NCBI GenBank assembly: GCA_000442015.1
Contig: KE560844.1
Span: 1 to 40,694 of the forward strand
Reading direction: 5' to 3'
Length of the DNA: 40,694 nucleotides
Origin: Rozella allomycis CSF55
Taxonomy: Eukaryota
Under the pieces are notes generated by a model that ran no database searches, was not told the DNA's origin, and saw only the letters and a program-made list of their open reading frames with translations. Below are positions 4,315 to 32,461 of the stretch, piece by piece (position 1 is the stretch's first letter; each line of letters begins with the position of its first letter). The position numbers and the translations under genes were made by a program.

Positions 4315-4331
4315 TTTAGAAATTTCCAAAG

Positions 4332-6553: not shown

Positions 6554-6599
6554 ATGAACTTAAATAAAATATAAATTTCCTATCATTTTGTTTGTTTTA

Positions 6600-7602: not shown

Positions 7603-7619
7603 GGTTTGTACCCTGGTCA

Positions 7620-8559
7620 ATGGGAATTAGCCAAACAGAAAAAGATTTTATTAAAAAAGGTGTTCTCTCCGATATTCGCACTGATGGTAGGACGCGAAAA
7701 AAGGCAAGAGAATTTAATGTTGACATAAATCCTCTGCCTCAGGCATCTGGAAGTGCGAGAGTGATGATGGACATGACCGATATTGTAGTGGGAGTAAAAA
7801 TAGACTTGTCATCTCCAAAAATTGATTCTCCAAATCAAGGATACGTATCCGTCAGCGTTGACTGGTATATCTTTTAGGTTTATAGAATAGTGCATCTTCA
7901 GCCTTCGAAACATTAGATCCTTCATATGATCCCCAAAATATTTCTACAGATCTTTCCAGATATTTAACTAATATTCTCATGACTAAAGAATGCATAAATT
8001 TAAAAAAGCTTTGCATAATTCCTCGTCAACAATGCTGGGTTCTTTACGTTGATGTCTTGTTGTTAAGTTATGGGGGAAATATTCATGATTCTGCCCTGTT
8101 AGCTTTGAGATATTCTTTGGAAAACGCTAAAATACCTTCAGTAAAATTTGGAGATGATGGAATGGCTTTTGAAATATCAAACGACATAGATTCGTATGAG
8201 TCAATTGAAATAGATGGTGTTCCCCTCTCCTTCACTTTTGCTCAAGTAACAAGTGGACGAATTTTGATATAGATTGGCGATGGAATTGTAATTGATCCAT
8301 CTGTGGCTGAAGAATTAGCCGCCCAGACTTGTTTGTCCATCGCTATAAATCGCCGGAACCAGGTTGTGTATATGCAATCGAGAGGACGAGGTTCTATCAA
8401 GCATAATATTTTGCTCGACATTATGAAGGTTTTTATGTAACTTATATTTTACATTAGGCTGCACAGAATAACGCTATTGAAACCTTCAATAATTACAAAA
8501 ATACATTAGCAGAGTCCAAAAATAGAAAATCTGTTGGATTTTTGGCAGTTGGTGTATAA
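7620..8559 (+). CDS. RRP42: Exosome complex component Rrp42 (EXOSC7)
   Basis: MGISQTEKDFIKKGV..RTDGR, PQASGSARV, LCIIPRQQCWVLYVDVLLLSYGGNIHD, IDPSVAEE; 3 introns. Confidence 0.92.
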
Positions 8560-8565
8560 ATTTTA

Positions 8566-10677
8566 TTAATTCCAGAGTTGTATTGTTCCTTCCGATCCCC
8601 CAGTCGCCAAAATGTCTGTTTTGATATCGATGGCAACCGACTGACACGATTTTTGTGCGCCTTTTAAAGTGTTTAGAACTTCATCTTTCTCGTAATTGTA
8701 GCTTTTTATCATAATAACTATTTTTACAGTTTGCAATCTCCATTAGCTTGAGCTAAAGCAATTGTTGTACCTCTTGCATCTAGTACAACCTTCTGAACAG
8801 AAGATGGGCCAAAATTATTTGTTTTAAGCTCTCGTGTGTTTCTTGTATCCCAGACTTTTACCACACCATCCAAATCACATGAAACAAACAATGTTCCCTA
8901 GATAGTAAAATGTATATGTTTTACCGATAGCGAAAACGACCCATGAACTACCGCATTCATATGCCCATACAATGATTGAGTACAAATGCCAGTTCTTGCA
9001 TCCCATTGTGAGATTGTTCGATCTCCTGAGCAACTCCATAGAAGGTTTGTGTAAGGCTTGAATGTGACAAAATTTACACTATCAGCGTGGCCCCGAAAAG
9101 TTAGTTTTGATTTACCACTAATATATTTCTACGTGATGCTTTACGTTCTTAAATCAAACAGGCGGGCAGTTTGATCCATAGAGCCAGAAGCAAGAAAATC
9201 ACCTAAGTCGTGAAATGCACAAGTCCAGACAGGTTGTGTATGATCTTTTAATTGCCTGACAGTTTGCCCATTATCAATGTTCCAAAGGCGAATCGTGCCA
9301 TCACCCGAACTAGTGGCAATCAAATTTTCTCTTCTCTTATGGGCATTAAAGAAATTACTTTGGATGAAAGTCGGAGTCCGCTACCCAATCCTTATGACCA
9401 TTTCCTGTTCTAATATGCTCCCCACTTGGTACGCTCCAAAGTTTCCATGTTCGGTCATCGGATGTAGACAAAAGCAAATTTTTGCTAGGAGAAAATTTAA
9501 GTCATTTATTAGATTTGGATATAATTTACGAGCTTACAGCCATAGAATGCGCTTTAATGCTAAGACCAGCCTTGTAGCTTAGTGCTTTACTTGAGAGTGA
9601 AGTCAATTTTTCACTGTTTTCTGCAAAAGGATTATTTCTATCTTCATTGGGTAGATAGTTTCCTAATGCTTTATTTGAGCTTAGTTGAACAGATTTTCTA
9701 CCATCATCATTATTTCTGGCAATGTTATCTTTGATGGCATATTTAAACCCATACTTTTAACTTTTTCTTCTATCTTGTTAACTCTGTAGAGCTACGTTTA
9801 TGTGAATAAAGTCTAGTACACTTCCGCTTTTTTCGTCTATCATTTTGTCTCTTTCTAAAGTTATCATAGTCTTTTCTTTCATCAATAATTCATATTTTTG
9901 TTGCCAATGCTTTAAAGTAGGCTCTATTTGCTCTAATTTGTTAGCTAATTTTTTGTAATCGCTCAATAATCGGTTCTTTTCTTGAGCGATTCTCTTGTGG
10001 TGTAATCTGTGGAAGTCTCTTTCTTTTTTAATTTTATAAAAAGTGGATTTGATGTTTCTTTTTTAAATTTACAGGAAAATTACGCGATGCTAGATTTATA
10101 AGCCTGAATTTCTTCTTGCGCTTTATGGAGTTCGGCATTCAAAACAATGTTTTGACTTTGTAAGTCATCTACTTCGGGAAGATCATTCTTTGAGATTTGA
10201 CCTGTTTGAATTTTTTCAAACCATTCGTTCTATCACTGCCTATTTTCAGAATTACTTGAAAAGCATCCAATGAGTTTTCAAGCTCATACTGTATGAAAAA
10301 ATTGCGGATAAAGTCATCCAATGTCTCAGTATATCTCTTAATTTCCGAGGATGCAAAGTTATTTTTTTGGCATCCATCAGACTGAACTTGCTGATCCATA
10401 AAGTTCTTTTGGTGCAACATTTGGACAACCTTATCAAGACTTTCCTCCTCTTCTTCGATATCAGACATGTCTACATCATCAAGTGGAATTTCATGATATT
10501 CGATCTCTTCATCATCTGCGATGTGTAATTCTTTTGTTAAAAGCTCAATTTCTATATGTGCCTTCTAAGACAGTTACTAAGATTAAGGTCCTCACGTTGA
10601 TCCTCGAAAGCCATATCATTATCTAAAAGATAGTTAGAGCTTCTTCTTCTGGAAGATGAACTAGAAACTGCTGCCAT
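8566..10677 (-). CDS. SPAG16: Flagellar central-apparatus WD40 protein SPAG16/PF20
   Basis: DDFIRNFF...LDAFQNEWFE, KKERDFHRLHHKRIAQEKNRL, and seven-blade WD40 with GHKDWVADSDFHP, DHTQPVWTCAFHDLGDFLASGSMD, FRGHADSVN; about 10 introns, one probably GT-TG. Confidence 0.9.
9503..9529 (-). other. Predicted non-canonical GT-TG intron (27 nt) in SPAG16
   Basis: gtaaattatatccaaatctaataaatg; removal gives HSMAVSSLKFSPSKNLLLSTSDDRTWKLW, a complete WD repeat. The next usable AG (45 nt) deletes LKFSPS. Confidence 0.7.
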
Positions 10678-10783
10678 TAAAGTAAAACGTAAACAAACAG
10701 CTTGATACTGGATTTTAAAGAGACGTATTAATAAAATAAAGTGAAACATGTTCGGACATATAAATATAATCCCGAAACATTGT

Positions 10784-13530
10784 TTATTGTTTAAATGTCT
10801 TTATTACGCTTTGACCTCCTACGTATATTTGTTGCAAAGAATCCTATTATCTATAAAAGAATTTTAATTACAGATCCATGCTGCCGAAAAATGATAGGCC
10901 TAATGTGGATGTCCTGGTTAAAATAGTACAACCTTCCTTGGTTAATAAAGCGTCTTCTGATGTCAGAAGGCCTCAGATTCTTGATGGAAAACTTGATGTC
11001 TAAACCATTAAAAATCCCTGGTTTTGAATTTGATTTGCGATTAACCCGACCATTATATGTTTTTGTCTGATCTCGTTGTTGCTCATTTATTCTAAGAAGA
11101 GTGTCAAAGGGTTTAGGCCTTATCACTTTAATATTTTTATATCCCAAGCCTTTTCCTGATACCGAAAAGTTGAGATCTCCATCTCTTATTTTTGAGGTAT
11201 GCATGCCGCTAAGCTTGTTTATTCTTTGCTTATTCTTAAATTCATGTTTTTCTGTTTGGTCTTCAAATTTAAAGTTGAAATCAAAGTCGTGGTGATTAAT
11301 CTCATCAATCTAATATATTTGCATATCCATTTTTACTTGATACGAAACTTTTTTGGCCAATAGGTTCGCATAATTATTGGTACTATTTTGCATTCTTTTA
11401 ATGAAAAAAGGTTGGAGACCGGACTCGTTATTATTTAAGTGTGAGGCCAGTCTAATTGTCTGGGCTGGTGAGAAATGTAGTATTCGGCTTTTGTCAAGGT
11501 CCGATCTACCTGTACGTGGTATTTCAAACTCAAAATCACTGATTTCTAGGTTCTAGTTTTAAAAAAGCCTTACCGGGCTCAACGAAATCTTCCTCATTCA
11601 TTAAAACATAATCTTTTTGTGACTCTAGTCTTGATTTCGGCTTTATTCCATGTTTTTCAAGAAGTCCAGAGATAGGATATCCCTAGAAAGAAATGTTTTT
11701 GGGGTATACTTGAGATAATAAGTTTGAAATTTGAAGTGCTGTATCTTTCTTTGAAAGAACTTGAAGAATATCTTTGGCGTAGTACTTGTTCGCGCCTATT
11801 AGCCTAAGAACTTCTGATGGCTTAATGTTGTACTATACTGAGAAAATTTAAAGATTACAGTCTCCATATTTCGTATAACGTTGGCTTTATCCAGTTCTTC
11901 TTGGTCCCCAATTATCCCATATGTAGCCAAAGGAGATACTGTGCCTTGAGCGATGTGCCGTTTTAATTCATCTATCTTCACGACTATTAATGTTTTAAAC
12001 ACAAAAGAACTTACTCCTTTTTCTTGGTGACAAGGGTTGCGACGAGAAACTTTGATCAATTAAAGCTGATGAATTTCGAATATCTTCATCATTTCTCTTT
12101 TTGGACTATTTTTAAAGGCTATTGCGTCTTACTCTTTTCAGATTGAATTCATTTTCCTCCAAATCAAGTGCCCCCGTTAAGTTGTAAAATTTCTTTGAGG
12201 CATCTGCTACATTTCCATATGTGGTAATTTCAAATACCTGTTAAAACAAATTGATTTCAATACCATGAGTCTATTAGACGATATGCAGTAGAGGTACATA
12301 TACGGCGTTAGTAAAAGTTTTGTTACAGGCGATGGCACATTTATTTGAAAAATTAACTGCCCTTTTCCAATATCCCAAAATCTACAGGTACAATCTGCGC
12401 TGGAACTGACAAGTAGACTATTTAATAGTATTACTACAGCATACTCTGAATTTATGGTAAACTGAAGGCCAATAACAGGCCCTTCATGGAAAAAAGTATA
12501 TATAAGATCTGCATGATAATTTTGGGGAAAAGTGGTTTCACCTATATATACTTCAGGTTATGCCACATTGAACTCCTCTCTAGTGATGTTTATATATCTA
12601 TGTGCGTTGTTTGACATTTCTGCTTGCTAGTTTTGACGTATTAGTAATATTACTTCCCTGCTACGCTTTATTTCATCAAGAGATTTAGAATACGAAACTG
12701 TGTTCCAAACCTTGCATTGTCCATTGAAATCACCCGTAGCCATTAAAATATTGTGTGATGAAAATGCTATACTACATATGCTGCTTGAATGACAAGATAA
12801 AGTGGTATTTGATTCAATATTTCTACTTATATTTGTAGGAGATATAGTATGTAGTTCAATGCCCTCCTTCCAATTCCAGGTGTGAATGGAACCATCGTCA
12901 CAACCACATGAAATTACATTGAAATTTTCATAGCATATATTAAAGGCACCAATACTAGAGCTATGCCTTAAAAATGAGTGAATGATATCGCCAGAATCCC
13001 AATCCCAAATTAGGATTTTTCCATCAATAGAACTAGAAAATAAGAATCTATCATCATCAGAGAACATGAGAGATAAAACCGGGCCAAGATGACCTGAAAG
13101 TTTTCCACTACTAGTTTCATTGTGTCTTTTACCGAAACCCTTTTTGACTTTCAAAATGCCACAAAATAATTTTCGAATCATTTGAACCAGTAGCTAAAAT
13201 ATCTCCATTGTTTGAAAATTTTATGTCTCTTATAATATCCTTATGAAAAAATGACCCGCTCTTTCCTAAATCACATGTTTTTTGATAAGTTTCTAAATTC
13301 CAAAGAGAAATCCAAGTTTCTGTGGCAAGTGCAAGCCTGTGTAGGTCATAAAAGATATCAAAAGTGAATATTTCAAACTCAGTGGCCAAACAATCATTCA
13401 GAGTGCATGAAATTGGTCTTCGCCCCGGTATCTTTTCTTGATGTCCAATAGAATTATCTATTAGTATAACTTAATATAAAATACCTGTAATTATTATTCA
13501 AATAGTTCTACCCCATAATTTCCAAGGCAT
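10784..13530 (-). CDS. WD40-repeat protein with long uncharacterised C-terminal region; contains an unresolved in-frame TAA at 12558-12560
   Basis: WD repeats (HKDIIRDIKFSNNGDILATGSNDSKIILW, GHLGPVLSLMFSDDDRFLFSSSIDGKILIW, HEGPVIGLQFTINSDLLVSSSADCTCRFW) joined by about 10 short introns; the start codon is inferred. Confidence 0.7.
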
Positions 13531-13562
13531 TTATCCAGTATGAAATATAAACAAAACATACA

Positions 13563-16338
13563 ATGAACGTAAGCAATTCGAATGCTAATTCTAATGCTAA
13601 TGCTGATGCAGCACTTCTTCATAGACTTTTTAAAGAAAACAATGATTTAAGAATCAAAATTCATAACTTTCAACGAGAAGTAAAAGACAAATTTCATATT
13701 TAATATTGCTCTTCAATAAAACAGTTCAATTAGAAAATTTAGAGGATGAATTTAGGATTCTAAAAAAGAGTTATGATGAAAAATCTAACGGAAAACAAAG
13801 CAGTCGAGTAAATAGGACGTTTATGAAATGACTAGCCATCAACAGGACAACAACATAGAATTATTCGCCAGACCTCAAATATGCTTCAGTCAAACAGCGT
13901 ATAAAGGCTAAAAATTACTAACAAGGACATAACAGACAGGCCTAGTAGCGGTCCATCTAGTGAGTCAAATTCAATACAAAAAAAGAATGCTGAAATTTTA
14001 AAACTAACGCAAGAAATAGATATATTGAAAGATGCTAATGAGCAAATGGAAACAACAATCGGTAAAACATTCAGGGATATTATAAAAGAACAACTTCAAG
14101 TCGCCGTGAAAGAATTGGAAAAGGTCAATCTAGATCTTAAAGAACAGGCAATCCAAAGGGAGGATTCTCCCGAAGAAGAAAGTAATTTTTATATATAAAA
14201 AATTTAGGGGTTAAACGAGATGGTGCAAATAATACCCAAAAGTTACTTGATGAAATGAATGATTTAAGAAAAAAGAATAAAGAGAACGAAGAATTCGTGG
14301 AACATCTTAAAGCCCAATTTAAAATTCAGATGGCAGAAAATAACAAAAAGAATAATGATCTTCAGAATCAATTGCAGGGAATAGAGTCTGTATGTCTGAT
14401 TTCATTTTTTTACAACTAGTTAGTAGAAGGGATAAAAAGGGAGTATGATGAATTTCTTGAGGTTACAAAACTTGAAAATGAAGCTCAAAGATCGTTACAA
14501 ACGCAAGAATATGAAAGATTGAAACACGATTACGACATTATAAAGTCAAATTCGTTGAATGAAAAGCGCAAAATCCTGGCTGAATTTCAGAATTTGTTAT
14601 ACACTCTGCAGTCAAATTTTGAAGAGTACAAATCTGCAAGTGAATTCATATTTAATCTGGAGATAACAAAGCTTGAAGAGGAATTAGTAAGCCAAGCATT
14701 ACGATTTGAACAAGAAATGATGTAAATGATATATAAAATGGTAATTTAGTTATCTTGTTCAAGCAAAAGATAAGTTTTACACTGAAATGATGATCGCAAA
14801 AGATGCAAAAATCATGAATTTGGTAGAGGGGTCGGATATGCAATCATTAATTCAGAAACATGAAGTTGACTTGGAAAATCTTCGTAGAGATCATGCGCGT
14901 GAAATGGCAAGAATAAGAGATGAGCGAGAATCAGAGCAAAAAAATCTTGTGGCAAATTTAACGAAAAATAATGCTTCATTGGAGGCTAAATGTGATAAGC
15001 TCCAATCTCAAGTCAAGTCATTGGAGCAAAAAATTCGAGAGTTGGTGAATACCATCGAGGGAAAAAATCGTACTATACACGAAAAGGAAGAATCCAAAAA
15101 GCGGTCTGAAGAAGAATATCAAATAAAGTTGGACATAGCTAATCAAAAGATAGAAACATTGGCTCAGGAAAAAGAACATTTGAGACATAAAATCATAAGA
15201 ATGAGCATGGACGCTAAAGGTGAGGGTGAAAATAACATGGAAAATATGCTCAAAAGAATTACCAGAGTATTTATATCATTCATGAATTATAAGGAAACAT
15301 CTGATTTATATATTCAATATGAAAAAATAATGAAAGAGAATAAAAATGTAGAAGAATTGTGTGCAACCCTAACTAAAAAGCTCAAGGAAAGAGACAGATA
15401 TATAACTTTTCTTGAGCGTGAAGTGCAAAGAAGGAATGACGAAATGTCAAACTTAGTATTTTAATTCTGCGTTGAAAGATAGTCTCAAACTTTTGAACGG
15501 TTTTTACTTTCACGCACTCAACAAAAACGACTGGAATCAAAGTTAAAAGAAGCAAAGAAATCTAAGGATCCCAAAACTGAAAACGAGAAAAATAATACAT
15601 TGTATAACTTAAATATTATTTGAATCAAGGCCTGAACTAAAATTACATTTAGATGCTAACCCGAAACAAGAAGAAATTCCTGTCAGGGTACAAGCTAAAC
15701 TAAAGTTTCAACCACCTAAAGACATCGTAAAATTTTATGGTGGCATTAATCAGAGAAAGCTAAGCGAAGGTACTAAAATAGAAAAACGTACGTTAAGTGT
15801 CGAATTGGAGCAAGGATTCGCGTAACATATATTCATAATTATATTGCAAAGATATCTGAAAAGGTTTAACGCTATTTCTAAAGCCTTAAACACCACCAAT
15901 TTCAAGAGATATGCAATATTGTCTAGCATAGATCCTGAAAATGAGGTATCTGAATCAAAAGTACAAAACCTTTGCCAATTAAATTGAGAAAAAGAACTTC
16001 AATATACTTAATGTCATTGAAGAAAAGAGAAAGAACGGAGAAGAAGTCAAAATTTATGCTGAAAGTGATAACCAATTGGGAGTCCAAGAAATGTCGTCAA
16101 CACTGACTAAATCATTAACAGCCATGATCCATGACCCAGAAAAACATTCTAATTTAGATATCATGCGAGTAAGGTCTATCTACTAATGTAAAAGCCTCTA
16201 CAACATGGAAAAGTGTACACTCCAAAACATATTGTTTCTCCTTTATTACATCCAATGAACCACCAATCCAAGACGCCAGAGACTTTCTTAACTTTGAAAG
16301 GAAATAAAGTCACCTTACCCAATGAAAATCTCAAATAA
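13563..16338 (+). CDS. Long coiled-coil protein of unknown function
   Basis: Continuous E/K/L-rich heptad-like reading after removing about 12 introns of 26-30 nt, the first being GT-TG. Confidence 0.75.
13680..13708 (+). other. Predicted non-canonical GT-TG intron (29 nt)
   Basis: gtaaaagacaaatttcatatttaatattg; joins NFQRE|LFNKTVQLENLEDEF. The unspliced reading stops at TAA, the nearby AGs at 13724 and 13733 give stops, and the first in-frame AG is 65 nt away. Confidence 0.65.
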
Positions 16339-17137
16339 ATGCATCTTTGTATTTTTTATCTTATATCTAATATTTTAGGAACAATCCCATTATTTACCAC
16401 GATTGAATGATGTAAGTAATAAATGGACACCTAAATCTCCGTATCCAAGTATGAGACGATTCTTAAAGCACATGTCAAGATGCGTCATTAATTTTATAAT
16501 ATGGCCATATAGTAAAATAAAGTCTTTTCTTTCTTCAAACACCAAATCACACAGCGTTCAAAGCTCCAGAATAAAAAGCATAGAGTATTTACCGGTACAA
16601 AATATGTCAACAAAAAATTAGGATTACCAGAACGTGAAAGATGAAAAACCGCCCGCTTATCGTGAGACTGTTATGGAATCCTTAGCAGACGTAGGTTTAG
16701 TGACTATAGGTAGTTCAATTTCCAATATTTGAGCTAGATGACTTACCTGTAGGACCAGTACACGAATTTGTCCTTGCATTTGCCGGTAATTTGATGGTAA
16801 AATTTAGAAAGGGAGTATACTAATTCCTATTGTTTCGATCATTGTTATAAGGGTGCTTAACAGATCTCACGCCATGAATTTAGGCTCTATATCAGCCTTG
16901 GGAACGTTTCTTATGATTGTTTCCACATTCCAAGACTCATTAATGGAATACTTTCTGCAATTAGAATCCTATCAAGACATCATGGTTTTAAGAAGAAATT
17001 TGCGGTTAATCAAACTTGTTTTCTTTTTTATATCATTTATGGGATATATTATGACTGTCTATGGTTTTTATACGTATAGACACGCCAGACTGTATGCCAA
17101 GCAATTGGCACAAAACGCATGCGACTATGCAGCTTAG
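16322..17137 (+). CDS. Bsd2/NDFIP-like NEDD4/Rsp5 adaptor membrane protein (start uncertain)
   Basis: Spliced product has LPDY and PPAY (PY motifs), IDDLPVG, LNRSHAMNLGSISALG and three hydrophobic segments, matching the Bsd2/NDFIP layout. Confidence 0.72.
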
Positions 17138-17172
17138 TTAAAAATCAGAAAATAAATAAAATAATTTATATT

Positions 17173-17598
17173 TTAATACTCAGGTTTGAATTGGAACAAT
17201 TTAGCGTTGACCTTTTTCTTATCCTTATTGCCGGTAAGTTCTCTTATCAATCGACGACTCCATTTGGGTCTGAAAAAAGGCATCAATTTTGGCCTTTTAG
17301 GCTTTCTTTTTTTCATGAGTCCTTGAGCAACCTTTGTTTTATATTCTTGAATTCGTTTCCTTCTACTCTGACACAATTTTCACAACAGTATTACTCGAAG
17401 ATATTGGGACCAATAATACGATTTACTTTTTCCTTTTCTTGGTAAAAAGTGTAGTTTCCTCATTTGAATTTGTGGGAATTCAATATTTCTACCTGAATTG
17501 GTGTAGCAAGAGTTAGATATTGAGAAAACAACGGGCCTTTCAGTAAAAAACGATCTTACAAATCCCCCAATCCGAGTTAGGGCTACTTTTCTAAACAT
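17173..17598 (-). CDS. Small highly basic protein with mitochondrial presequence-like N-terminus (possibly mitoribosomal)
   Basis: MFRKVALTRIGGFVRSFF..., one 27-nt GT-AG intron, K/R-rich second exon; no family recognised. Confidence 0.55.
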
Positions 17599-17656
17599 GG
17601 ACATTTTCTGTAATCAGCAATATATCAGTGTCCGAATTTTCTCAATTTCTTACCGG

Positions 17657-17929
17657 ATGGCTGATTCCAAATTGAATACCAATAAGGCTCGATTCAAGCC
17701 ATTAAATAAAGAACAGAGAGATAAATGCTATGAAGCCAAAGACCTATATTTTAAATACTGCAATAGTTATGAAAAAGAAGATTCTGATGATTGTATCAAA
17801 TTAAATGAGCATTTCGCTCAGTCATGTCCAGAATCATGGGTAGTTCATTTTAAAGAGTTAAGAATGAGAGAAGTAGAGTACCAAAAACGATATGATGAAT
17901 ATAAGAAGCAAGGATATAATGTTGAATAA
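17657..17929 (+). CDS. COA6: Cytochrome c oxidase assembly factor 6-like
   Basis: KEQRDKCYEAKDLYFKYC...CIKLNEHFAQSCPESWVVHF (COX6B/COA6 fold, CPxSWVxHF). Confidence 0.8.
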   Translation: MADSKLNTNKARFKPLNKEQRDKCYEAKDLYFKYCNSYEKEDSDDCIKLNEHFAQSCPESWVVHFKELRMREVEYQKRYDEYKKQGYNVE

Positions 17930-17937
17930 ACGTAAAT

Positions 17938-19721
17938 TTATTGGACATCATCAGGCCCAATCATTTTCTCGGGCCTTACATAACGGTCAAACTCTTCAGA
18001 AGTCAGTAGCTTTAAGCTAAGTACAGCCTCTTTCAACGTTGTTCCTTCTTTATGAGCTTTCTTTGCTGCTTTCGCGGCGTCTAAGTTGATGAAAAAGTGG
18101 AATACTACTGTCATATCCAATATAGGGGTTTAATGATGTAACTAACATTAAAGACTCCTTCATGATTGTATTTATTCTTTCTTCATTAGCCTTGATCCCT
18201 ATGACACAATTTTTTCTAAATGATTCACATGCGTCTGTTAATAGTCTGGCAGATTGTAGAAAATTCTTTATTATTACAGGCTTAAAAACATTTAGCTATA
18301 AATTTTTAAAGTTATTATTACTTCAAAGTGACCGTTAGAACCGCTTATTGAAATAGCGGCATTGTTCCCCATAACCTGCGCACAGACCATAGTCATCGCT
18401 TCGCATTGAGTTGGATTAACCTTTAAGATTGATCATGCATTTTTACCTTTCCTGGCATTATTGATGATCCGGGTTCATTTTCAGGCAATAGTAGTTCTCC
18501 AAGACCACATCTTGGTCCTGATCCCAAAAGCCTTATATCATTAGCTATTTTCATCAAAGAAACAGCACAAGTATTAAGCGCTCCATGAGCATGGACTAGA
18601 GCGTCATGGGCAGCGAGTGCTTCAAACTCTAAAATTAGTGAAACGTATATACTTTATTAGCTGCTGGCTTAAACGGCAGTTTAGTTATTTTTCCTATTTC
18701 ATTTGCTATCTCTTCATCAAATCCTTTAAATGTATTAAGTCCCAATTATATTAACATTTTGCACAAAATTACTGTTCCAACAGCAGTGCCACCTTGGGCA
18801 AGTTCCAATAATGCCGGATATACTTGCTCAATTCTATGTATTGACATCTCTAACTGTCTAACGTATCCGCTAAATTCTTGTCCAAGAGTAAGCGGTGTGG
18901 CATCTTGAAGGTGCGTTCTCCCGATTTTTATAATTGAACCGAATCTCTTTACACAATCTTCAAATGCTAATTTCAATTTTTTTAACGAAGGTAATAATTC
19001 ATTATGCAAACTTAAAGCTCCAGCTACGTGCATGACAGTAGGAAATCTGACCTACTAATTGTTATTGTTGATTTACGTATCATTTGATGACTGTGATCGA
19101 TTAACGTGGTCATTTGGGTGTACTGGCTTCTTGCTTCCCAATTCTCCTCCCAAAATTTCAATAGCCCTATTTGAAATAACTTCATTGGCATTCATATTTG
19201 ATTGGGTGCCTGATCCAGTTTGCCAAACAACAAGTGGGAAGTGATCCATTAGTTTTCCTTGGTAAACCTCTTCGGAGGCTTCAATAATCGATTTTCCAAT
19301 ACTTTCATTCAAACCATGATTCATATTAACAATTGCTGCTGCCTTCTTTACAATTCCAAAGGCTCTTATTAATTCTTCCGGCATTCTCTCATTTGGTCCT
19401 CCAATGTCAAAATTTTGGAGACTTCTAAAATTATCTGTATAAGCAAATATGACCTTTGTGTTTGAGCGCCCCAATATTTATCACTTGGCACTTGAATTTC
19501 ACCAAAAGTATCCCTTTCAATCCTAAATGTTGCCTAGTATTAATAACTATTTGATATATACGTAATAACGATGAATAAGACTTATATTGAACTTCGCCCA
19601 TTGTAAATGCTAAGATTAACATCAATATGGGACAACGAGAAGAAATATTGGATTGAAAATCGTTATTATTTAGAATACCTACCTTTGCCTTTGACAACGT
19701 ATGTTGCAGATTCGAGTACAT
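17938..19721 (-). CDS. FUM1: Fumarate hydratase class II, mitochondrial
   Basis: [82 protein letters not shown]; 9 introns including a 73-nt one and a GT-TG one. Confidence 0.97.
18743..18772 (-). other. Predicted non-canonical GT-TG intron (30 nt) in fumarase
   Basis: gtaattttgtgcaaaatgttaatataattg separates GGTAVGT from GLNTFKGF; it contains an in-frame TAA and no AG dinucleotide. Confidence 0.9.
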
Positions 19722-20012
19722 TGGTGGCTTATTCCCAAACAAAATTTGATTAATTCGATAATTCAAATTAGATCAATTTAAGAAGTAATTATATTCTAAT
19801 TATTTAATTTTAGTCCTTAAATATCTATAACTCTGCCCTACATCACTTAACGATTGTAAAGCAACGTTAAATAAGCGACCAAGCTAAGGTAGGCTCTATC
19901 TCATTTTTGGGATTTTACAACGAGAGGATAATTTATGTGTTATCTTGACGACCCCTATTTAAATGACATAATTAGAAATTAAGCCCCCGACAACCATTTT
20001 TTGTTTGTGGAG

Positions 20013-20420
20013 ATGGATTCCGTTGATTCAGATAAAGTAGAACAAGTCAAATCATTTGAATTTATGCCTTATCCTCCTTACCAATATCATCTTGATATGA
20101 TGCGAAGCTCAACTCCGAAAATTTTCAGATTTCCAAAAGAACATTCTCATGAAACTGATATAGAATCATGGATGCTTTATCAAGCCCTTAACAATAGGCA
20201 ACAATTTTTTGAAGTGGAAACTCCAGACGAACAACCAATAATTAACTTAAGATCAAATTCAGATTCAACATATACTTCGGGGTTTAAGAAACGAGAACGA
20301 GAAAGAATAAAGAAAAATAATAGAAAAATAGATAAAGAAGAAGATCTTGTTCCCTTAAAACCGGAAAAAATAACATCTCTGGTGTTAAATGCATGCCCTT
20401 TGGTGGGTCCAAATGAATAA
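20013..20420 (+). CDS. Hypothetical protein
   Basis: Uninterrupted ORF with plausible composition filling the gap between genes; no motif recognised, start uncertain. Confidence 0.5.
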   Translation: MDSVDSDKVEQVKSFEFMPYPPYQYHLDMMRSSTPKIFRFPKEHSHETDIESWMLYQALNNRQQFFEVETPDEQPIINLRSNSDSTYTSGFKKRERERIKKNNRKIDKEEDLVPLKPEKITSLVLNACPLVGPNE

Positions 20421-20441
20421 AATGGCTTTATTAAAGACCTT

Positions 20442-22483
20442 TTACAGTGGTATTTGTTGCAAGAAACCGTCGCTTGTTCCGCACACTATGTATTGTTCAT
20501 TCTCCGAAAATGATACGGTTAAAATGCCGGAGTTGAAAATTCTCAACTGCCTAATTCTCTCACCGCTTTTCGTTCTAAAAATAGATATTGTGTTATCATA
20601 TGACCCCGCAGCAAATAATTGACCGTCACCTGAAAAGCACACAGTACAAGCCCAACTAGGTGCCATTGTAATGCAATGGATCTCTGAGCCATTGACATAG
20701 TCGAACAATCTAATAGTCATGTCCCTTGATGTAGTAAGTAATAAGTTCGGTTTTTGCATAACTACACATAATACTGAATCGTGATGCACATCAATACATC
20801 TGGTGTAGGTCATGTTTTTGCTATGGAGAACTTGTCGCATATCCCAAATATAAACTTTCTAAATTTAAATCAAATTGATTGATTTACATGGTCTAAACTT
20901 GCAGTGGCAACATGGGTTCCATCTGGACTGAAACGAATAGATTTTATCCATTTGGTATGTTTCTTCACAATAGCAACGCAGACACCATTAACCAAATCAT
21001 AAATTCTCGCTGTATTATCCATAGAAGAAGTTGCAAGATATCGTTGATCAGGAGATATGTCACAGCTAGTTATCCCATCGGAATGACCGGTGAAAGTTCT
21101 TTCGCAGACAGCTGTTTGAACATTCCAGATTTTAATAGTTCGATCAAAAGAAACTGAGATAATATGCAAATCTTTTTTAGTAACTTTAAGATCTGTAACA
21201 ATTGACCGATGACCTACATATTGTGCATGGCAAGACAAAGTATTAATGTCGAAAATCCTAATTATGCCATCATATCCACCAGTTATCCAAAATGAAGAGT
21301 TTAAACTCGAAACCTGCATACACTTTAGGCCTCGTCTATGAGCTAAAACCCCGACAGGAAATAGAAATATATCAATGCTAGATAAAACCTTAGAAATATA
21401 CTGCAGCTTCAAATATACTTTTGGTATTTTCCTATGACCTACGGTAGGTTTCTTATTCATTGGCATATCTGAGATTTCTCCTTTGCCTGAATTGCTGTTA
21501 ATGCTGAATGTACTCTCTCTTATCATGACGCTGTCTCGCAGTCTAAGAGTAGATTTTGAGCTGTTGCTAGAAGCCTCAAATAGAGCGGAATATCTTTGGA
21601 TCCACCACCTAAATATGTTTATGTCGCGTAACTCGGTCGAAGTAATGGGATCTTCATAAAAATCTTTGGCCAGTACATCAGCTAAAATTCTAAAGGTTTT
21701 CGATATTAAATCTGACGCGACTTCGGAGAGCTTTACAAGAATTTTGGTGAAACTTTCTAAATCTTTTAGTCCTTCACTTAACCCAAGAGAGACTATGGAA
21801 CAAGTTATCCTCAAGAAAGTATAATCAATGATAGAATCTATGAAAGTGTAAATTTGGTCAGGACTATAGGGGCCTTGCAAGTCTTCAAGAAACTCGTCAA
21901 TAAAGTTGGATGACGGCGGTTGTATCTTCTCCTCTGATGCAATAGCCTCTACCAAGTCTATAGAGTTACCCTTAGATGAAAGCTCTTCAGTGTCTGTTTC
22001 TTCAGTAATTGTCTTTATCGAATTTATACTCTCCATCGGTGGAATGTTTTCCGTAGGTTGATCATCATCAATTTTCAAATTCAATGATCGTTCTTCCAGT
22101 TCAGCATTCCATTTTTTTAAAACATCTTGATAGCCTTCAGCAAGTCTTTCAAATGCTCTAATCAATTTTTCTGCCTCTTGTTTCTCCGCCTCGTCATCTA
22201 GAGTAAAGCTGCGTGGTTCCCTTTGAATTTCAATATTTGACTCTTTTTCGTCAAAATCTTCTATTGCAACATTCCATCCATATATCCAATCACATAAGAA
22301 TTGATGTGTTGATCTAAATTCGCCAGCATCGACATCCCGAATGTTGAAATACTTGTTTGCTGAATTCCCTAATTTTCTTGTTAATGGGGGCGAGAGAATT
22401 TTAGACAGGTGATTCAGATACGGGATTTTTAAATTTTGACCCAGTCTACTCAAGTCATCGTATATTTTAAATGTGTCGTCCAT
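20442..22483 (-). CDS. WD40-repeat protein with acidic/helical N-terminal region
   Basis: GHRSIVTDL..SVSFDRTIKIWN, GHSDGITSCDISPD..TSSMDNTARIYD, KHTKWIKSIRFSPDG..TASLDH|KVYIWD; one 29-nt intron and a probable in-frame 30-nt intron at 21389-21418. Confidence 0.85.
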
Positions 22484-22537
22484 TATAGCTAAAGTATAAA
22501 TATTGAAATATAATAACAATAAAATAAATCGAATCGT

Positions 22538-24238
22538 TTATTGCGCAGTATTCAGGCGTGAATTTAAACATTTTTCCAATTTCGCTGCAATCAGAGCTAT
22601 CAATTTATCGCTTTCACTTTCAGAGTTGTCACAATTGCAAGGTGCGGTGGGTTGTTGGTTTTGTTCTTGTATTTTCATTGAAAGCTCATCTATTTTGCTT
22701 TGAAGGTCATTTATTTTTTCCGCATAAAACTTGTGGACTTCTTCCAATTCACCAGAAGAATCATCGACAACAGTGTCACCGTCGGAGTCATCATTGGCCA
22801 TATCATCTTCAAATTCATTATTTTGATCTTTCGAATCAGCAACATCGTCGACTTCAGTTTCGTCATCAGAGTCTTCTATAGTTGATGGAACTTCACTTTC
22901 AAGTTTCTCAAACAAGATTTCTTCATCTTTCTCGGAGGGTCTTTTTATTAATGTAAAAATATGTTACTTTTCCTTTGCGGAAATTAGACCATCTTCTTTA
23001 TCCAATTTTACATCTCCCAAATCAAATTGGTTCAAATCCACATCATCTTTAATTTTCTCAGATATTCTAATCCATAAGTATTTAATTCATTACAAATCAA
23101 GAAATTTTAATTCATCTTCTGAAAACGATGCAATTTCTTTGTCACGAACTTCTACTTGACTGTTGGTCGCATTGCCTTTAACTTTTATTTCAGCCTCATT
23201 ATCTACTTTCGCTGCATCACTATTTTAAAAACATTATAGGATTTACTCTTGAGAGTTTGGTACCTGCTCTTGAGCTAATTTTGATTCTTCCTCTAAAAAT
23301 TCCGCCAAATTAACATTTTCAATCCCTGATGAAATACTTTTTAATATTGATAATGTTATTTACGATTCTAAAAATATTAAATCATCAAGAGAATAATCAG
23401 TTGTACCCCGCAAATTAATTTCCTTGAGGCTGTTTTCTTTTCGAACTTCTGGTTTAGATTCAACAACATTAGACACAACATTATCGCTCTTAGTATTCAC
23501 GCTTTGCAGTCGTCTCCAGCAAGTAACCAATTCTTGACTTAATTTGGTAACAAGATTTCTTTTCGTGTAAAATTCATCTTCGAATTTCCTCGTCGGCACA
23601 GTAATTGGTGTAATTTCTTGATTTATCATAGTTCTGCACTTTGTTAACTCTTTTTTAAGTGCGTCCATATGATAAGAAATTTGCGTCTCGAGTTTTTTCG
23701 GTAAAGCCTGTGGTCTTTTCGATTTCTTTTCCCGCTTATGACCTTTAACATGGCTATTGAAACCATCCTGTCTATTAAATATTCTTCCACATTCGAAGCA
23801 TCTATACTGAGTCATGACCATATTCACTGCGGAGGCCAAATTAATATAAAACTTGGAATACGCATTGTGGAGGACTGTCTCGTCCTTTTCAACCATGATA
23901 TCATGTCTAGTGGACGCCGACATATCATCCCAAAACACCTTTGACGATGGATTAATTAACGGTGGCAGTAACAGAAACGTGCTGTTTGCTCTGTGCGCCT
24001 TGGCGTAGCAAGCATGCAAATGTTTATGAGCGCCTGATTGCAGCATCGGCATTCCGCAAATGTGGCAGTAGGGGTGTTTAATATTCTTGAAATTCTGCTG
24101 AAACTCGGGTGGCAGCAATGTGGCGAGTTCCGTAGCGTTTGGGCTGAGAAAAGTGTCTTTTACAACCCTGTTATATTTTTTGCGACAGAAAACGGCGAGA
24201 GCGAAATAAAAGATGAGCACAATCCCAATTTTTTTCAT
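22538..24238 (-). CDS. Zinc-finger protein (C2HC + C2H2) with N-terminal signal-peptide-like segment and acidic C-terminus
   Basis: MKKIGIVLIFYFALAVFC; CHICG..HLHAC; YRCFECGRIFNRQDGFNSHVKGH. Four 27-28 nt GT-AG introns join ORF 23360-24238 to ORF 22538-22915 in frame. Confidence 0.78.
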
Positions 24239-24423
24239 CCTGGATGTGGCTTGGTTGCGTGCATTTTAATACAGGGTTTAATAGCAGGCTGGCCATGCTA
24301 ATTTGATAGATTGATTAAATGGGGATTATGGAATTTTAGATGTTGTGTGGAATGTGTAGTTTTTTATGCTGATGATTTGGTTTGTGGTCACATTGTTTTT
24401 GGGGAATGCGCGGGATGTGGCGC

Positions 24424-27400
24424 ATGATGGATCCAGAGAATCGACCTTTCTGGGTCGTGAAATCGGGCGTGGAATTGTTGAGTAACGAAAAGAAAAAGGA
24501 TGTGATACATAATATGCAGAGTCATTTGGAGTTTACGGTATATTAAACGTTTTGGATTTAATAGGCAAGTGTCAATCGATTAGTAGTTGGCAGCCCGTAT
24601 AGTCTTGTTATTGTAAAGAAAGAGCTGTATCTAGTTAATTCTGATTATTCTTTGAAATGTTCATTTGAGTTTGGTAGATATTAAATGTATTTGTGATAGA
24701 AAATGATTTAGTTGAGATGAAGATGATAAGGGAATACGTTGTAGGATATGATAAAACGAATATTTTATATGTGTTGGATTTGAAAGAAGAAAAGGAAGTG
24801 TTTTCCCAAAACTTGGGATTTGATATTCAGCAATTGAGAATATTTGAAAAGGAGGATGGAACTTTAGATGTAGTAATAATTACAGAGGATAAAATTGTAC
24901 TATTTATAAGTGAACTTGATATACAAAGCATATCGGTTGAGCAAGTAAAGATGATACAATGTGAAAGATAAGATACAGAATAAAATGATACGAATTGATT
25001 GCGAAGAAANCCAAGTAATATATGCGAGAGATGTGGATGAATATTTGTTTTGTGGGAGTGGAGAGAATGTACTAGTCAAGATAGGAAGGAATGAATGTAT
25101 TGATATTATAGACTATTGCCCATTCAATTCATTTATCAAGAACATCGAGACAAGTGAGTATGAAGAGAACAGAGGGATTTTACTGACTATTGAAGAATTA
25201 AGTTTGTATTTGTGGGATTACAAGTCGATGATAGCAGTAGCATGGAAAGCATTTGATAAAAGAATTAGTGATGTGAAGATATGCAATCAATTCATTTTAT
25301 GTATTTGTGACAATGATTTAAATATATTGGAAATTCCAACATTGAATGTTTTGCATTCTTATACATTTAAAGAAGAAATTACGTTTGTTGATTGCAGTTT
25401 AAATGTAATAGAAATTAAAAGTTGAGATAGTCTGATAGTGTGTTTATTAAGCACGGCTGTGAATTGAAATCATTTCATGAATCTAATCCATTAAAGTTGT
25501 ATGGCAANAAGCATTTGATAAAAGAATTATTGATGTGAAGATATGCAATCAATTCATTTTATGTATTTGTGACAATGATTTAAATATATTGGAAATTCCA
25601 ACATTGAATGTTTTGTATTCCTATAAATTTAAAGAAGAAATAACGTTTGTTGAATGCAGTTTAAATGTAATAGAAATTGAAAGTTAAAATAGTCTGATAG
25701 TGTGTTTATTAAGCATGGATGTGAATTGAAATCATTTCATGAATCTAATCCATTAAAGTTGTATGGCAAGAGAATTAAAGAGAATGATTTTGAGCAAGCT
25801 AAATTGATAGCGAAAGAATTTAATTTAAATACAATGGTAAATACTATAAATGTTCTTTTTAAAGGATGTGTTGAAATCTAAATTTATTTATTTACGAGAG
25901 CAAGACAATGTTGTGGTTAATGAAGAGATGATAAATGAGCTGAATGAGATTGAAGATGAAGAATTTATTTTAGATTTTTGTTTGAATGTTGAATGTGAAT
26001 CTATTGAATCGTTTAATTTGATTTATGATTTTGGGATTGAAAGGTTTCCAATTATGCAAAGTTTGGTTTATAAGTTTGGAACGTTTAAATTGTTGAATTT
26101 GAGTGTAAAAGAATGGAAGAGATTTAAGAGAATTGGAATGTATGAAGAAGCAATAAAGTATTTGAAGCAAGGAGATATTTACAAGTCATTTGTTTTAATA
26201 AAGAGACATTTTGAAGAGATTGAAAATGTTTTGCAAGTGTTAGAGAATATTCCTACTAATAGAAACCCGAAAGATTATTCTATTCTAGTTTCTATTTTGA
26301 TTAAAGAAGAAATGAGTGAATGGGTGGAGAAAAGATGTAGGTTTATTGAACATTACCTTCAAAATGCATCGTTAGCTTTAGAGTTTTTGAATATAGTTTG
26401 GAAGTTTAATTCAAATGAGAATATTAATAGATTGAAGGTGGAATTGGAGTTGATTGTTTATTTGAAAGAGAAACATTCAATAATAAAAAGATTGGGTGAT
26501 GATCTAAGTGACCAGGGTGTGATAAATGTGATGATGGAAAGAATAACTTGCATTGAATTGATACCAAAAGAAATAGAAAATCATATTAAACCATTTTGTA
26601 TTAAGAGGGGGATTGATTATGAAGAATTGATTGTTGATTATTGTTTAAAAGTTGAAGATTTAGATTTTATTTCTTCTTTAATAAACTGTTTGAAATCAGA
26701 TGATAAAAAGATGGAATTAATTTTGAATTTATTAAAAGATTTGAATTCAGAAAATTTAATAAATTCAACAATTTTGTTAAATGAATTTACAAATTCAGAT
26801 TCAGATTCAACTTTGAATAATTTAATAAAAATGGTAAATTTAATTTAATAAAATTTTAAAGGGATTTGAATTAAAGAATTGTTTAAAGTTTAATGAATTT
26901 GAAGAACAAATAAAATTGTTAAAAACAAGATCTATTTTAAAGAAATATAAAATATCTTTAAATTCAATTTCATCTTCTTTATTTTCATTTACAACTTTAA
27001 TGAGAATAATAAATAATCCAAATGAAGATGCAGTTTCAGATTGTTTAAAGATAACAAGAGAATTTAACAATTGGAATATTTATGAAATTTATTTTAATAG
27101 ATTATGTTTTCTATGTAGATTTAATAAAGCCAATAATATTGAATATTTAAATGAATTGGAAGTGGAAATGAAACACAAAGTGTTAAAGAATTGTTCTGGT
27201 TGGTTGATTCAATTAATAGATTGTTCAAAAGAAGATGATTTAAATGATGAAGAATTGAAATGGGTTTATGAATCAATGCTTCCAATCTCAAAAGAATTGT
27301 TTAACACTCACAATCAACTATTGAATGAAAGTTTATTTAAAAATATTTCATTTAATGAGTTTACAAACATTATTAGTTTCTGTAATTGTTTAGAAAGACT

Positions 27401-30400
27401 TTCTTTACTCTACATTGAGTTTAATTTACCTTTTACTGTTTCTCAGCTAATGAACACTTCATTTGTTGAAATGACTTGCAAAGATTACATTAAATCTCAA
27501 GTAAATACAATTAGTTTTCATTTTAAAGAAATCATTTAATAATTCTAAAATAAATAGATTGGCTTACTTGCTAGGAATATCCAAAGTTACAATGCATTTA
27601 CTATATGCTGAAGAGAGTGCTAATCAAGGTGATCATTTGAAAATGATTCAATTATGCAATGTAAACATTTATTAATTAATTTAATAAGATTATTGTCAAT
27701 GAATATTTAGATTCATTTACTAGTGTAGAATTGTTAAGAATTTGTATTAGATTTATAAAATATTTAAACTCTCATTGGGAGAATTACAATCAGTTTGATT
27801 CAATTGAATTTATTTTAAATCAAATTTTATATTTCATTAACATTTCTTTATCTTTTTGTGATTCTGAATTTCTAGATTGTAAATCTATTTTTAATCTTTT
27901 AAATAGTTTGTTTGGAAGAGTATAAATTAGTCTATATTTTATTGATAATATTTAAAAAGACTGAAGATGGAGATTATTTAAAACCAATTTCAAATTCAGA
28001 TAAAAATTTGTATTTTTCAGAAATGTTTTTTGAACAAGGGTTGATCATGCCCACAAGAGAAAGTTTTGGAGAAGCTTTGAAATGTTTTTGTAAATCATCT
28101 AAAACATTTAAATTAATATCAAAAGAATCAAAACTTAAAGGTAGAATGAGCTATGAAGAGAATCCGTTAAATGGACTAGTTGAAATGTTGACTGAACAGG
28201 GGTATTATCAATCAGCATTGTTAATACGAAATAATTTGATGATATCGGAACCAAACAAGACTATAATTGAGCCTTATTTAAGAAAAGTGTTTAGTTTTAA
28301 AGAATTGGATTGTGAAGTGGCAGTTTCATTGATGATATCATTGCCAGTTGAAACAGCATTTAATTTATTCAGAGTAAAACAACTTTATTATTAATAAAGG
28401 GTGGATTGAGTACAATTGGAAATGATTATTTGAGATTAATAAAGTTGGCTAGTATTGGTATGGCGTGTGGTAATTTATGGAATCAGAGATCATTTTTTGT
28501 TGATTGTCAGCAATTGGAAAAGAATGGGATTTGGTGGTACCATTTGAATGTACTTGAAATACCATTTGATAATGTGAAATTCAGAACTAGTAAATTTGGG
28601 GAATACCAAAAGACGTTAATTCCAATGATATTAGAAAAGAGTGATTTGGATATTTCATCAGTTAAAGATTATTGTGAATGTTTTGATATTAATAAAGACT
28701 TTGCTTACTTTGAATTTATTCAACAGAGTATTAAAAAGAGAGAGTTTAAAGGAAATGTTTTAAATGTTATTGAAGAAATTAAAAATAAAGAAAAATTGAA
28801 AGATTTATTGTTGAATGAAATTTTAAACAATATTTCTCCTTTTGATTATTCAAGTAAAGTGAAATTGCGATTTAAAAATAGAAATTGAATTTGTTTTAAA
28901 ATTGATTTTGAAAATTGATAAAGAAAATTCATTTTGTAAGAAATCTGAATCTATTTTGAAATGTTTAATCAACTATGAACGAAATAAAGATCCATTGAAA
29001 GAAGAATTTAAATTTGTTAAAGATTATGATAAGAAATCTATTCAAGAATTAATCAATGTAAATTTTATAAAGCTTAGTTTAATTAGAATTATCCTGCAAG
29101 TAGAAAAAGAATTTCATTTGAATTGATTTTAAAAGATCCGTGGCTGATTCTTAATCATGAATTAGATTTTAATTCTTTGTCTATTTTAATTGGTTTATCA
29201 ATCCCATTAGAAATAGAAATTTCAAAGTTTTACATTTGTGTTATAAATAAATTACTGTCTAATCCTTGTTTGAATCAACAAATAATAAATCAGATTAAGA
29301 ATTGTTTGGAATTGATTAAAGATAAACAAGTTGCTGTTGGGGTTGCTAAATATTGTGCTGATCAATTTGATTCTGGAAATTTCAAAATTGAGTTTCTTAA
29401 ATTGTCTTTCAAACTGGCCAATGAATGGAAAAATGAAATTGAAGGGGGAGGGGGTGATAAGAGAGTTGGAAGAGATGAAAAGATTAAAAGTGGAGACGAC
29501 AACAGTAACGCTAATGAAGATGATAAAGAAAATGTTAAAATAAACACTACAGATACAATGGATACAATGAGTCATGACGCTATTGATAAAGACTCTGGTG
29601 ACTCTACAGATACAAAAGGAGAATTGAATCTTTGTTTGAAAGCTTTGAATAAATTAGAAAAGACAATTTCATTTTCAGAAACAGAATTTCAATTAAAAGA
29701 ATTGGGATTAGAAAAATTAATGAATGAAAATGTTGAAAAAATAATTTCTGATCTATTTGAAATTCAAGAAATAGATTTTAATAAAGTTTGTTCAGAAATA
29801 AGTTATAGACATTCATTAGATTTTGAAAATGTCAAAGTAAATTTATTAAATGAAAAAATTATTAAAAATACAACAGATCCAAATGATTTAAATTTTATTT
29901 ATATTTTAAGAGTTACTAGAAGTGAATTAAACACTTTTAAAAATGAAGAAAAGATTAATAAACATATTTTAAATTTACTTTCTTCAATGCCAACAGATAA
30001 ACAAATTCATTGGCTATTAAACATTGCTTATCAAGTAATCTCTTCTCTTTAAACTAATCTAGCAAAAAACTAATAAGATTACAACTCAAATGAGAATCAG
30101 AGCTTTATTTGTTCTCTTATCAAACTATTCAGAATTTGAAATTAATAAAATTCACAACTTTAACGAGATTAAAGATTACCACAAAATTCTACTCTTCATG
30201 GCCACCTTTGAAGAATTGAAAATTCCAAAAACTATTAAAGAATTCATCACTCAAGATAAACAACTATTAGCTAAATCAATCTACTTAAATTACAACAATG
30301 ATCCAAAAGCAATTCAATTAATCTTCAGTTTGAATACTTTTTATTCTTTAACTGATATCTCATTGTGGAAAAATGTCATTAATTCATTTCTATCTTTCAA

Positions 30401-31180: not shown

Positions 31181-31232
31181 ATGAAATTCATTTTTTAATA
31201 AATTCATTTTCTATAATGCCAATAAAATTTAT

Positions 31233-32404: not shown

Positions 32405-32461
32405 AAAAATTTAGTGGCTTGGTTGGCGCAAAGTCGGTAATTCAATTACGCGTGTGGAACT

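Follow-up and report, generated by a model that had tools for sequence, protein, structure and literature searches.

Structure of the fumarase gene

The window analysed here is a stretch of 40,694 nucleotides of Rozella allomycis CSF55 (contig KE560844.1, positions 1 to 40,694 of the forward strand), to which all coordinates refer. It is AT-rich (GC 0.23-0.37), and its genes are split by very short introns. Its minus strand carries a gene for a class II fumarase, the model of which was built by coordinates from the sequence and comprises 1440 nt (479 codons) with an open frame throughout. The parts of the gene referred to below are the following.

17938..19721, minus strand: class II fumarase gene, start codon ATG at 19721, stop codon TAA at 17940-17938; 9 exons and 8 introns
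19534..19682, minus strand: putative intron 1, 149 nt, GT-AG, following a 13-codon exon 1
19425..19453, minus strand: intron 2, 29 nt, GT-AG; its excision restores QTQRSLQNF
19047..19076, minus strand: intron 3, 30 nt, GT-AG; its excision restores SSNDTFPT, and the AG used is the third in TTAGTAGGTCAG
18773..19046, minus strand: exon 4, the last codons of which encode GGTAVGT; Lyase_1 profile positions 115-207
18743..18772, minus strand: intron 4, 30 nt, phase 0, 5' end GTAATT, 3' end TTG, no internal AG
18653..18742, minus strand: exon 5, 30 codons, occupying the gap in the Lyase_1 profile (positions 208-235) between exons 4 and 6
18627..18652, minus strand: intron 5, 26 nt, GT-AG; the AG used is the second in TTTAGAG, and the frame is kept only with 26 nt
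18421..18446, minus strand: intron 6, 26 nt, GT-AG
18296..18321, minus strand: intron 7, 26 nt, GT-AG
18081..18108, minus strand: intron 8, 28 nt, GT-AG

The eight introns thus measure 149, 29, 30, 30, 26, 26, 26 and 28 nt, and seven of them have GT-AG ends, intron 4 being the exception. Of all parts of the model, intron 1 is the least secure; the N-terminus is identical in this model and in the deposited protein model P0003, which is annotated as "fumarate hydratase" of Rozella allomycis CSF55.

The product is a class II fumarase (FumC/Fum1), with the domains, the signature and the similarity to solved fumarases all present. Pfam assigned exons 3, 4, 6 and 7 to Lyase_1 and exons 8 and 9 to FumaraseC_C. 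The 28 Lyase_1 positions missing between exons 4 and 6 (exon 6 covers 236-294) are filled by the 30 codons of exon 5. The catalytic-site motifs, including the GSSxMPxKxN signature, are present in the exons. The translated gene matches solved fumarases (6n1m, 1yfm and others) with E values down to 4e-35 for exons 4-5, and its best matches among fungal fumarases share 69-75% amino acid sequence identity.

Sequence and boundaries of intron 4

Read on the minus strand from 18772 to 18743, intron 4 is GTAATTTTGTGCAAAATGTTAATATAATTG and falls precisely between the codons for GGTAVGT and those for GLN. Two further features within it are of concern here.

18746..18748, minus strand: in-frame TAA, the ninth codon of intron 4 (X at residue 100 of the read-through translation)
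18750..18754, minus strand: TTAAT, a possible branch-site-like motif, the second A of which lies 8 nt before the last base of the intron

The TAA blocks reading through the segment. That the segment contains a stop in frame and is devoid of AG had been proposed from the sequence-only reading, and both points can be read directly: the dinucleotide AG is absent over all 30 nt. The base responsible is A at position 18744 of the plus strand, which places a T at position -2 of the intron; a plus-strand T at this site would make a TAG acceptor. The acceptor context has T at -3, G at -1 and G at +1, each of them normal for this genome.

When the read-through translation was used as a query, 49 distinct PDB chains matched at E ≤0.001, and in each of the three alignments displayed (6n1m_A, 1yfm_A and 4hgv_A) the gap corresponded to exactly the 10 codons of intron 4. 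Shifting the boundaries one base to the right leaves the mRNA unchanged and gives the ends TA..GG, while a leftward shift by one base produces AG..TT ends and a synonymous ACG codon. Since both shifts lose the GT, a GT donor is kept by the GT..TG reading only, as had been claimed; the same claim had named the TA-GG shift.

The spacing of TTAAT in intron 4 matches that of CTAAT in intron 5 and of TCAAT in intron 6. As 62 introns of the window (see below) yielded no clear branch-site consensus, this spacing is a hint only and no weight is placed on the motif. A U12-type intron was considered and rejected: the U12-type consensus is GTATCCTT for the donor and TCCTTAAC for the branch site, whereas intron 4 has GTAATTTT as its donor and contains, over its 30 nt, nothing resembling TCCTTAAC. 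Judged by its sequence, intron 4 is a genuine ultrashort U2-type spliceosomal intron: donor, length, restored frame and shared position all fit, whereas the 3' AG is lacking.

Conservation of the protein across the junction

Two protein searches, each returning the best 120 of 8000 entries scored, were pooled to 230 homologues. The pattern GGTA.GTG.N was carried by 226 of them, and G-[LI]-N followed the motif directly in 229. Three of the four homologues outside the pattern differ by point changes and still have a contiguous G-[LI]-N; the lone exception is the annotated model P0211, in which a later segment comes directly after GGTAVGT at the same boundary. Taken together with the gaps in the PDB alignments, the contiguity in 229/230 homologues means that exactly the 30 nt of intron 4 must be removed, in agreement with the sequence-only reading; on their removal the motif is contiguous.

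The residues encoded immediately after the TG are those of the family: in 227 sequences the column counts are G 226, L 213, N 226, T 203, K 171, G 221, F 210 and D 203, and over the first 11 codons the Rozella residue is the commonest one in 7 family columns. Mean identity of the Rozella fumarase to 12 early-diverging fungi is 73.5%, as compared with 74.0-82.0% among the members of that panel, which indicates no marked relaxation of the protein. No sign of a pseudogene (frameshifts, stops in exons, lost motifs or faster evolution) was detected in any exon or in the 12-fungus comparison. Only one Rozella entry, and hence no second Rozella fumarase, appeared among the best 120 of 8000 in each search, which is weak evidence of a single copy.

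Orthologous introns end in AG

Metagenome contigs were scanned for GGTAVGT codons followed directly by GTA, with the 3' AG left outside the search pattern; the donors sampled are therefore GTA only, as required by the pattern. The scan gave at least 120 loci. Fumarase sequence lay upstream in 44 of the 120 listed, and in 42 of these 44 the pattern G-[LIVM]-N-[TASC]..[GNED]-[FYW] followed within 330 nt. At least 35 distinct introns of 25-191 nt (L102, L014, L029 and L003, for example) were found at the same phase-0 GGTAVGT/G[LI]N boundary, and all 35 listed end in AG (19 TAG, 10 CAG, 5 AAG and 1 GAG). Of the remaining two fumarase loci, L039 has, by eye, a TAG before GLNTKKG, and L036 runs off its contig.

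The shared position and the AG in 35/35 of the matches listed indicate that the position of the intron is old and that the TG is derived; that all listed relatives have kept the AG suggests that selection normally maintains it. These introns share with intron 4 of Rozella the codon boundary, phase 0 and the GTA donor, and 8 of the 35 are 25-37 nt long; unlike the Rozella intron, every listed one is AG-ended. On this comparison, intron 4 is orthologous to a widely kept intron and differs from it in a single respect, the A at -2.

Other introns of the window

With GT..AG introns limited to 20-45 nt, a path finder based on coding potential picked out 89 candidates in the window; the length was capped at 45 nt, as the finder joined unrelated genes when introns of up to 250 nt were admitted. 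Filtering for a GTA donor, a length of 22-36 nt and a strong gene path left 62 introns, AG-ended by construction. Most of these (46/62) are 26-28 nt long, which is the mode, and 7/62 are ≥30 nt. Their 3' ends are TAG in 34, AAG in 20, CAG in 6 and GAG in 2, and the donor GTAATT occurs in 7/62. Intron 4 resembles these canonical ultrashort introns in its GTA donor, its length within 22-36 nt, its AT-richness, the T at -3 (34/62) and the G at -1, but has T at -2 where they have A.

AGs near the ends of introns are skipped in several cases: in TTTAGAG of intron 5, in TTAGTAGGTCAG of intron 3 and in TATAGTAG of an Avl9-like gene. Accordingly, "first AG" is no rule in this window.

A search admitting any acceptor at a cost of 8 bits made seven non-AG proposals in the window, including fumarase intron 4. 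The other six were rejected by reading, not by homology: four (31237-34683) form a chain across separate genes, one (22569-22528) lies between two genes, and for one (12573-12544) a canonical 25-nt version exists. The corresponding any-donor search made 12 proposals, most of which begin at or near stop codons at the ends of genes, and none was convincing. Two apparent breaks, one a gap in the Avl9-like gene (39049-38706) and the other where an RNA cyclase-like gene begins (~32230-32420), proved canonical on reading. Neither search produced a second convincing non-AG intron among the ~70 of the window. Intron 4 is therefore a single case and no pattern, and a general laxity of the Rozella spliceosome about the AG is unsupported. 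In listings of the literature on Rozella and its introns, and in passages of PMC8476143, PMC6349667, PMC8042348 and PMC6944219, no report of non-AG introns in Rozella was found.

Support for the TG in DNA

Contigs of three DNA runs (X1, X2 and X3) and of one RNA run (X11) were aligned over 4001-24000. Intron 4 is spanned by one contig of each DNA run: 18500-21768 in X1, 16779-20210 in X2 and 6948-19817 in X3. The X1 contig shows four differences, at 19907, 20732, 21470 and 21479; as all of them lie elsewhere, X1 reads the same base at 18744. Among the differences listed for X2 and X3, none falls at 18744. Moreover, the 205 words sampled from 17900-19800 were found with a share of 1.00 in each of the three runs. 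For every run, the depth over the bin 18675-19341 is that of the single contig crossing the site, so that no contig with an alternative allele covers this interval.

Hence the plus-strand A at 18744, on which the sequence-only reading depended, stands in the DNA contigs, with certainty in X1 and, in X2 and X3, with no listed difference. The assembly may itself derive from X1-X3, or all three may come from the same strain; simple assembly error is thus excluded, but the TG may be specific to the strain and neither old nor fixed in the species. The identity, position and sequence of intron 4 and the base itself are direct observations. Over 20 kb the window differs from the run contigs at ~129 positions, often in blocks in which the runs disagree among themselves, and this suggests two haplotypes or a mixed culture. 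The RNA run X11 contributed five pieces of ~20-50 letters over 4001-24000, with many differences and with unlike flanks.

Relation to known TG acceptors

Among non-AG acceptors, TG is the one with good experimental support, its use having been verified in 36 human genes (Szafranski et al. 2007, PMC2374985). In the human TG acceptors, position -3 is a pyrimidine and position +1 a purine, and an AG lies no more than 28 nt away; they are reported as alternative sites beside an AG, never as the sole 3' site; in human AG>TG mutants neighbouring AGs are activated and no splicing occurs at the TG (PMC2374985). The Rozella TG shares these features of the human tandems: it has T at -3 and G at +1, and the next AG lies 19 nt downstream. 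Intron 4 is also like the human TG-AG tandems in combining a GT donor and a 3' TG with an otherwise ordinary U2-type intron. It is unlike them in that the AG partner of a human tandem is reported also to give a usable mRNA, whereas the nearest AG in Rozella shifts the frame. Furthermore, at only 30 nt, intron 4 leaves almost no room between a branch site and the intron end, unlike the human tandems.

The second point of comparison is the human disease-type A>T mutation at -2, which likewise turns AG into TG by one base in an otherwise normal acceptor with AGs nearby (PMC2374985). Such mutants are known loss-of-function alleles, whereas the Rozella TG is the sole allele seen, in a conserved, otherwise intact single-copy gene. 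By its ends, intron 4 falls within the known GT-TG class of non-canonical introns; a TG as the sole productive acceptor would go beyond that class.

Is the TG used?

From these data we infer how the TG may be used in RNA and by what mechanism it might be chosen. The acceptor AG of an ancient fumarase intron would have become TG by a single base change at -2, and an intact fumarase mRNA can arise only if the second splicing step joins exon 4 to the base after the TG. The TG could be joined, at least in part: its terminal G is kept, donor and TTAAT motif are spaced from it as usual, and the AG 19 nt downstream could aid early recognition in the manner of the human TG-AG tandems. Splicings that remove 49 nt (with a frameshift) or 63 nt (with a deletion of 11 residues) would then be by-products. 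Productive GT-TG splicing of intron 4 is argued for by the otherwise perfect gene, the conserved protein, the lack of a second listed Rozella fumarase and the human precedent for TG; doubt arises as the human TG is reported never to be the sole site, 35/35 listed relatives have AG, the window holds no second case and the runs possibly represent one strain. On balance, we regard productive use of the TG as a tentative reading with a chance a little short of even.

A wider version of this reading appears doubtful. It would hold that the 3' site of Rozella's 26-30-nt introns is set mainly by the distance from donor and branch region together with the terminal G, the A being dispensable, that the TG of intron 4 is a constitutive and sole productive acceptor, and that more such cases lie across the genome behind models forced to canonical ends.

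The most serious alternative, although on the whole an unlikely one, is that a recent mutation has disabled the acceptor, so that the intron is retained with its TAA or the 49-nt frameshift splicing takes place, the gene being then a severe hypomorph or else a pseudogene of very recent origin that has yet to collect further lesions. Rozella is an obligate parasite, for which a loss of mitochondrial metabolism is plausible, and its relatives have shed mitochondrial metabolism and the TCA cycle. The AG ends of the 35/35 listed orthologous introns and the lack of another non-AG intron found in the window are what a disabled site would lead one to expect, and the DNA runs, being possibly of one strain, would allow a recent mutation of the laboratory lineage. 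The human AG>TG mutants, which use neighbouring AGs and not the TG, and the human TG that is never the sole site point the same way (PMC2374985). On the other side, the lesion would be the single one in an otherwise perfect 479-codon gene with seven good introns, the fumarase sequence is conserved about as in free-living fungi, and no second fumarase of Rozella was met with among the best 120 of 8000 per search, which is weak support. Respiratory genes in the neighbourhood, those for COX6B (17507-17926) and an ATP synthase gamma-like ORF (~6600-7500), look intact, and no second allele was seen at the site in three runs, though the runs differ elsewhere in the window. It had been argued earlier that the intact rest of the gene speaks against a pseudogene. 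This holds in part: the exons are indeed intact and an old pseudogene is disfavoured, but a very recent splice-site knockout would show none of the signs sought and would leave the same picture, and for that reason this alternative stands.

The next alternative concerns the AGs downstream of the TG, which lie 19 nt (18725-18724), 31 nt (18713-18712) and 33 nt (18711-18710) from it and give rise to two sites of interest.

18724..18725, minus strand: first downstream AG; an intron ending here would be 49 nt long and would shift the frame, which then meets a TAG six codons on
18710..18713, minus strand: AGAG, the second AG of which is the acceptor of the in-frame 63-nt intron in P0003

As the nearest AG shifts the frame, productive splicing would have to rely on the TG alone, and an intact enzyme needs it. 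The deposited protein P0003 passes from GGTAVGT directly to IANEIG and lacks the 11 residues coded right after the TG. Were this model correct, a 63-nt GT-AG intron (18772-18710) would be removed and a 468-residue fumarase short of 11 residues made. It keeps the frame, has canonical ends and is the model that was deposited; we nevertheless consider it improbable. The AGs at 49 and 61 nt, both of them nearer, would have to be passed over, and the residues lost are encoded in frame just past the TG and, as shown above, agree column-wise with the family. The G-[LI]-N that follows the motif is kept in 229/230 homologues, the exception being another annotated model. The 19 codons left would not fit the 28 Lyase_1 positions that the 30 codons of exon 5 do fit. 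The intron would also exceed the 22-36 nt range of the filtered set of 62, from which, however, longer introns had been removed by the filter itself. Gene callers usually disallow non-canonical intron ends, and the deposited model is consequently no evidence of splicing. We read P0003 as the probable product of a caller forced to canonical ends.

It is very improbable that an AG allele is also, or really, present and that the TG belongs to one haplotype or is a consensus artefact common to assemblies of the same data. The ~129 block-wise differences in 20 kb, suggestive of two haplotypes or a mixed culture, would leave room for such an allele, and contigs drop minor variants. Against it stand the lack of a listed difference at 18744 (the four of X1 being all elsewhere), a depth in the bin 18675-19341 that corresponds to a single contig per run, and the presence of all 205 sampled words in X1, X2 and X3.

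That the 30 nt are kept in the mRNA and passed over by translational bypass or by read-through of the stop is scarcely credible: the length of the segment, divisible by 3, leaves the frame unchanged, yet the segment has the donor and the length of an intron at a conserved intron position, and reading through the stop would break up, with 10 extra residues, a motif that runs uninterrupted in 229/230 homologues. The little probability that is left goes to readings outside those named.

If the TG is used, intron 4 would be a natural U2-type intron the sole productive 3' end of which is not AG, and rules of 3'-site choice in ultrashort introns, among them whether distance or sequence decides and what a nearby AG contributes, could be tested directly in a simple setting. 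A sole TG in an essential single-copy housekeeping gene would, if true, be a situation expressly not found in the human survey (PMC2374985). If the TG is not used, the site would be an ordinary fresh splice-site knockout and a snapshot of the decay of the TCA cycle in a microsporidia-related lineage. The deposited protein lacks 11 conserved residues because, on our reading, the caller forced canonical ends, and similar silent model errors may exist in Rozella and in other compact genomes.

Fumarase models and motif matches

The deposited fumarate hydratase model of R. allomycis CSF55 (P0003) lacks 11 conserved residues because it takes a canonical intron of 63 nt (18710-18772, minus strand), and this deletion, now carried by several protein databases, is probably an annotation artefact. 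In the fumarase model of another early-diverging fungus (P0211), GGTAVGT is followed directly by TAPNKFEAL, with ∼27 residues absent; here the gene caller probably overlooked a small exon at the same intron boundary as in Rozella.

The metagenome scan for codons of GGTAVGT directly followed by GTA returned at least 120 loci, and among the 120 matches listed, 76 belong to something other than fumarase. In these non-fumarase loci the most frequent upstream contexts end in [LM]AY[TV]LI, which suggests an unrelated protein family carrying GGTAVGTV.

Intron size and splice sites

The introns of R. allomycis are extremely short and uniform. Filtering of the GT-AG proposals across the whole window (GTA donor, 22-36 nt, strong gene path) left 62, of which 46 measure 26-28 nt, and the donor starts with GTA[AT] in nearly all of them, GTA itself being required by the filter. 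Short introns are exemplified by 4708-4738, 14182-14207 and 36594-36569. Median intron lengths of 29-197 bp have been given for a fungal set that includes R. allomycis, in a passage that ties the value of 29 to no named species (PMC8042348).

Near the acceptors of three introns, AG dinucleotides are left unused:

18627-18652, minus strand: fumarase intron 5, TTTAGAG, upstream AG unused
19047-19076, minus strand: fumarase intron 3, TTAGTAGGTCAG, AGs just upstream unused
38707-38735, minus strand: intron of the Avl9-like gene, TATAGTAG, AGs just upstream unused

In each case the reading frame is kept by the last AG only. It is possible that these AG runs represent alternative sites of the NAGNAG type, or that very proximal AGs are unreachable.

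An intron of the RNase PH-like gene is ambiguous, one acceptor being combined with three in-frame donors:

7845-7885, plus strand: donors GTATCC (41 nt), GTCAGC (35 nt) and GTTGAC (29 nt)

A gap of ∼27 positions in the Pfam profile spans this intron.

Sequence variation and composition of the window

Comparison of positions 4001-24000 with the contigs of three DNA runs, possibly sources of the assembly, revealed ∼129 differing places, and none of those listed lies in the fumarase gene. The differences often occur in blocks in which one run agrees with the window while the others differ (for example, 13390-13568 versus 14069-14162), a pattern suggesting that either the culture is mixed or two haplotypes are present. 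At 23143-23183, two runs show a 39-nt skip and three other letters.

A strong anomaly of strand composition was noted at 24001-32000 (GC 0.23-0.32): the GC skew reaches +0.33 to +0.43 across the KNTC1/Rod-like gene and flips to -0.38 at 30-32 kb. The same gene contains two near-identical exon-plus-intron units (24955-25700, plus strand). A stretch of ∼55 residues is common to the ORFs at 24955-25422 and 25487-25684, the introns at 25405-25430 and 25667-25692 differ by 2 bases, and single Ns at 25010 and 25508 adjoin the repeated units. Either a genuine tandem duplication or the serial assembly of two haplotypes could account for the repeat.
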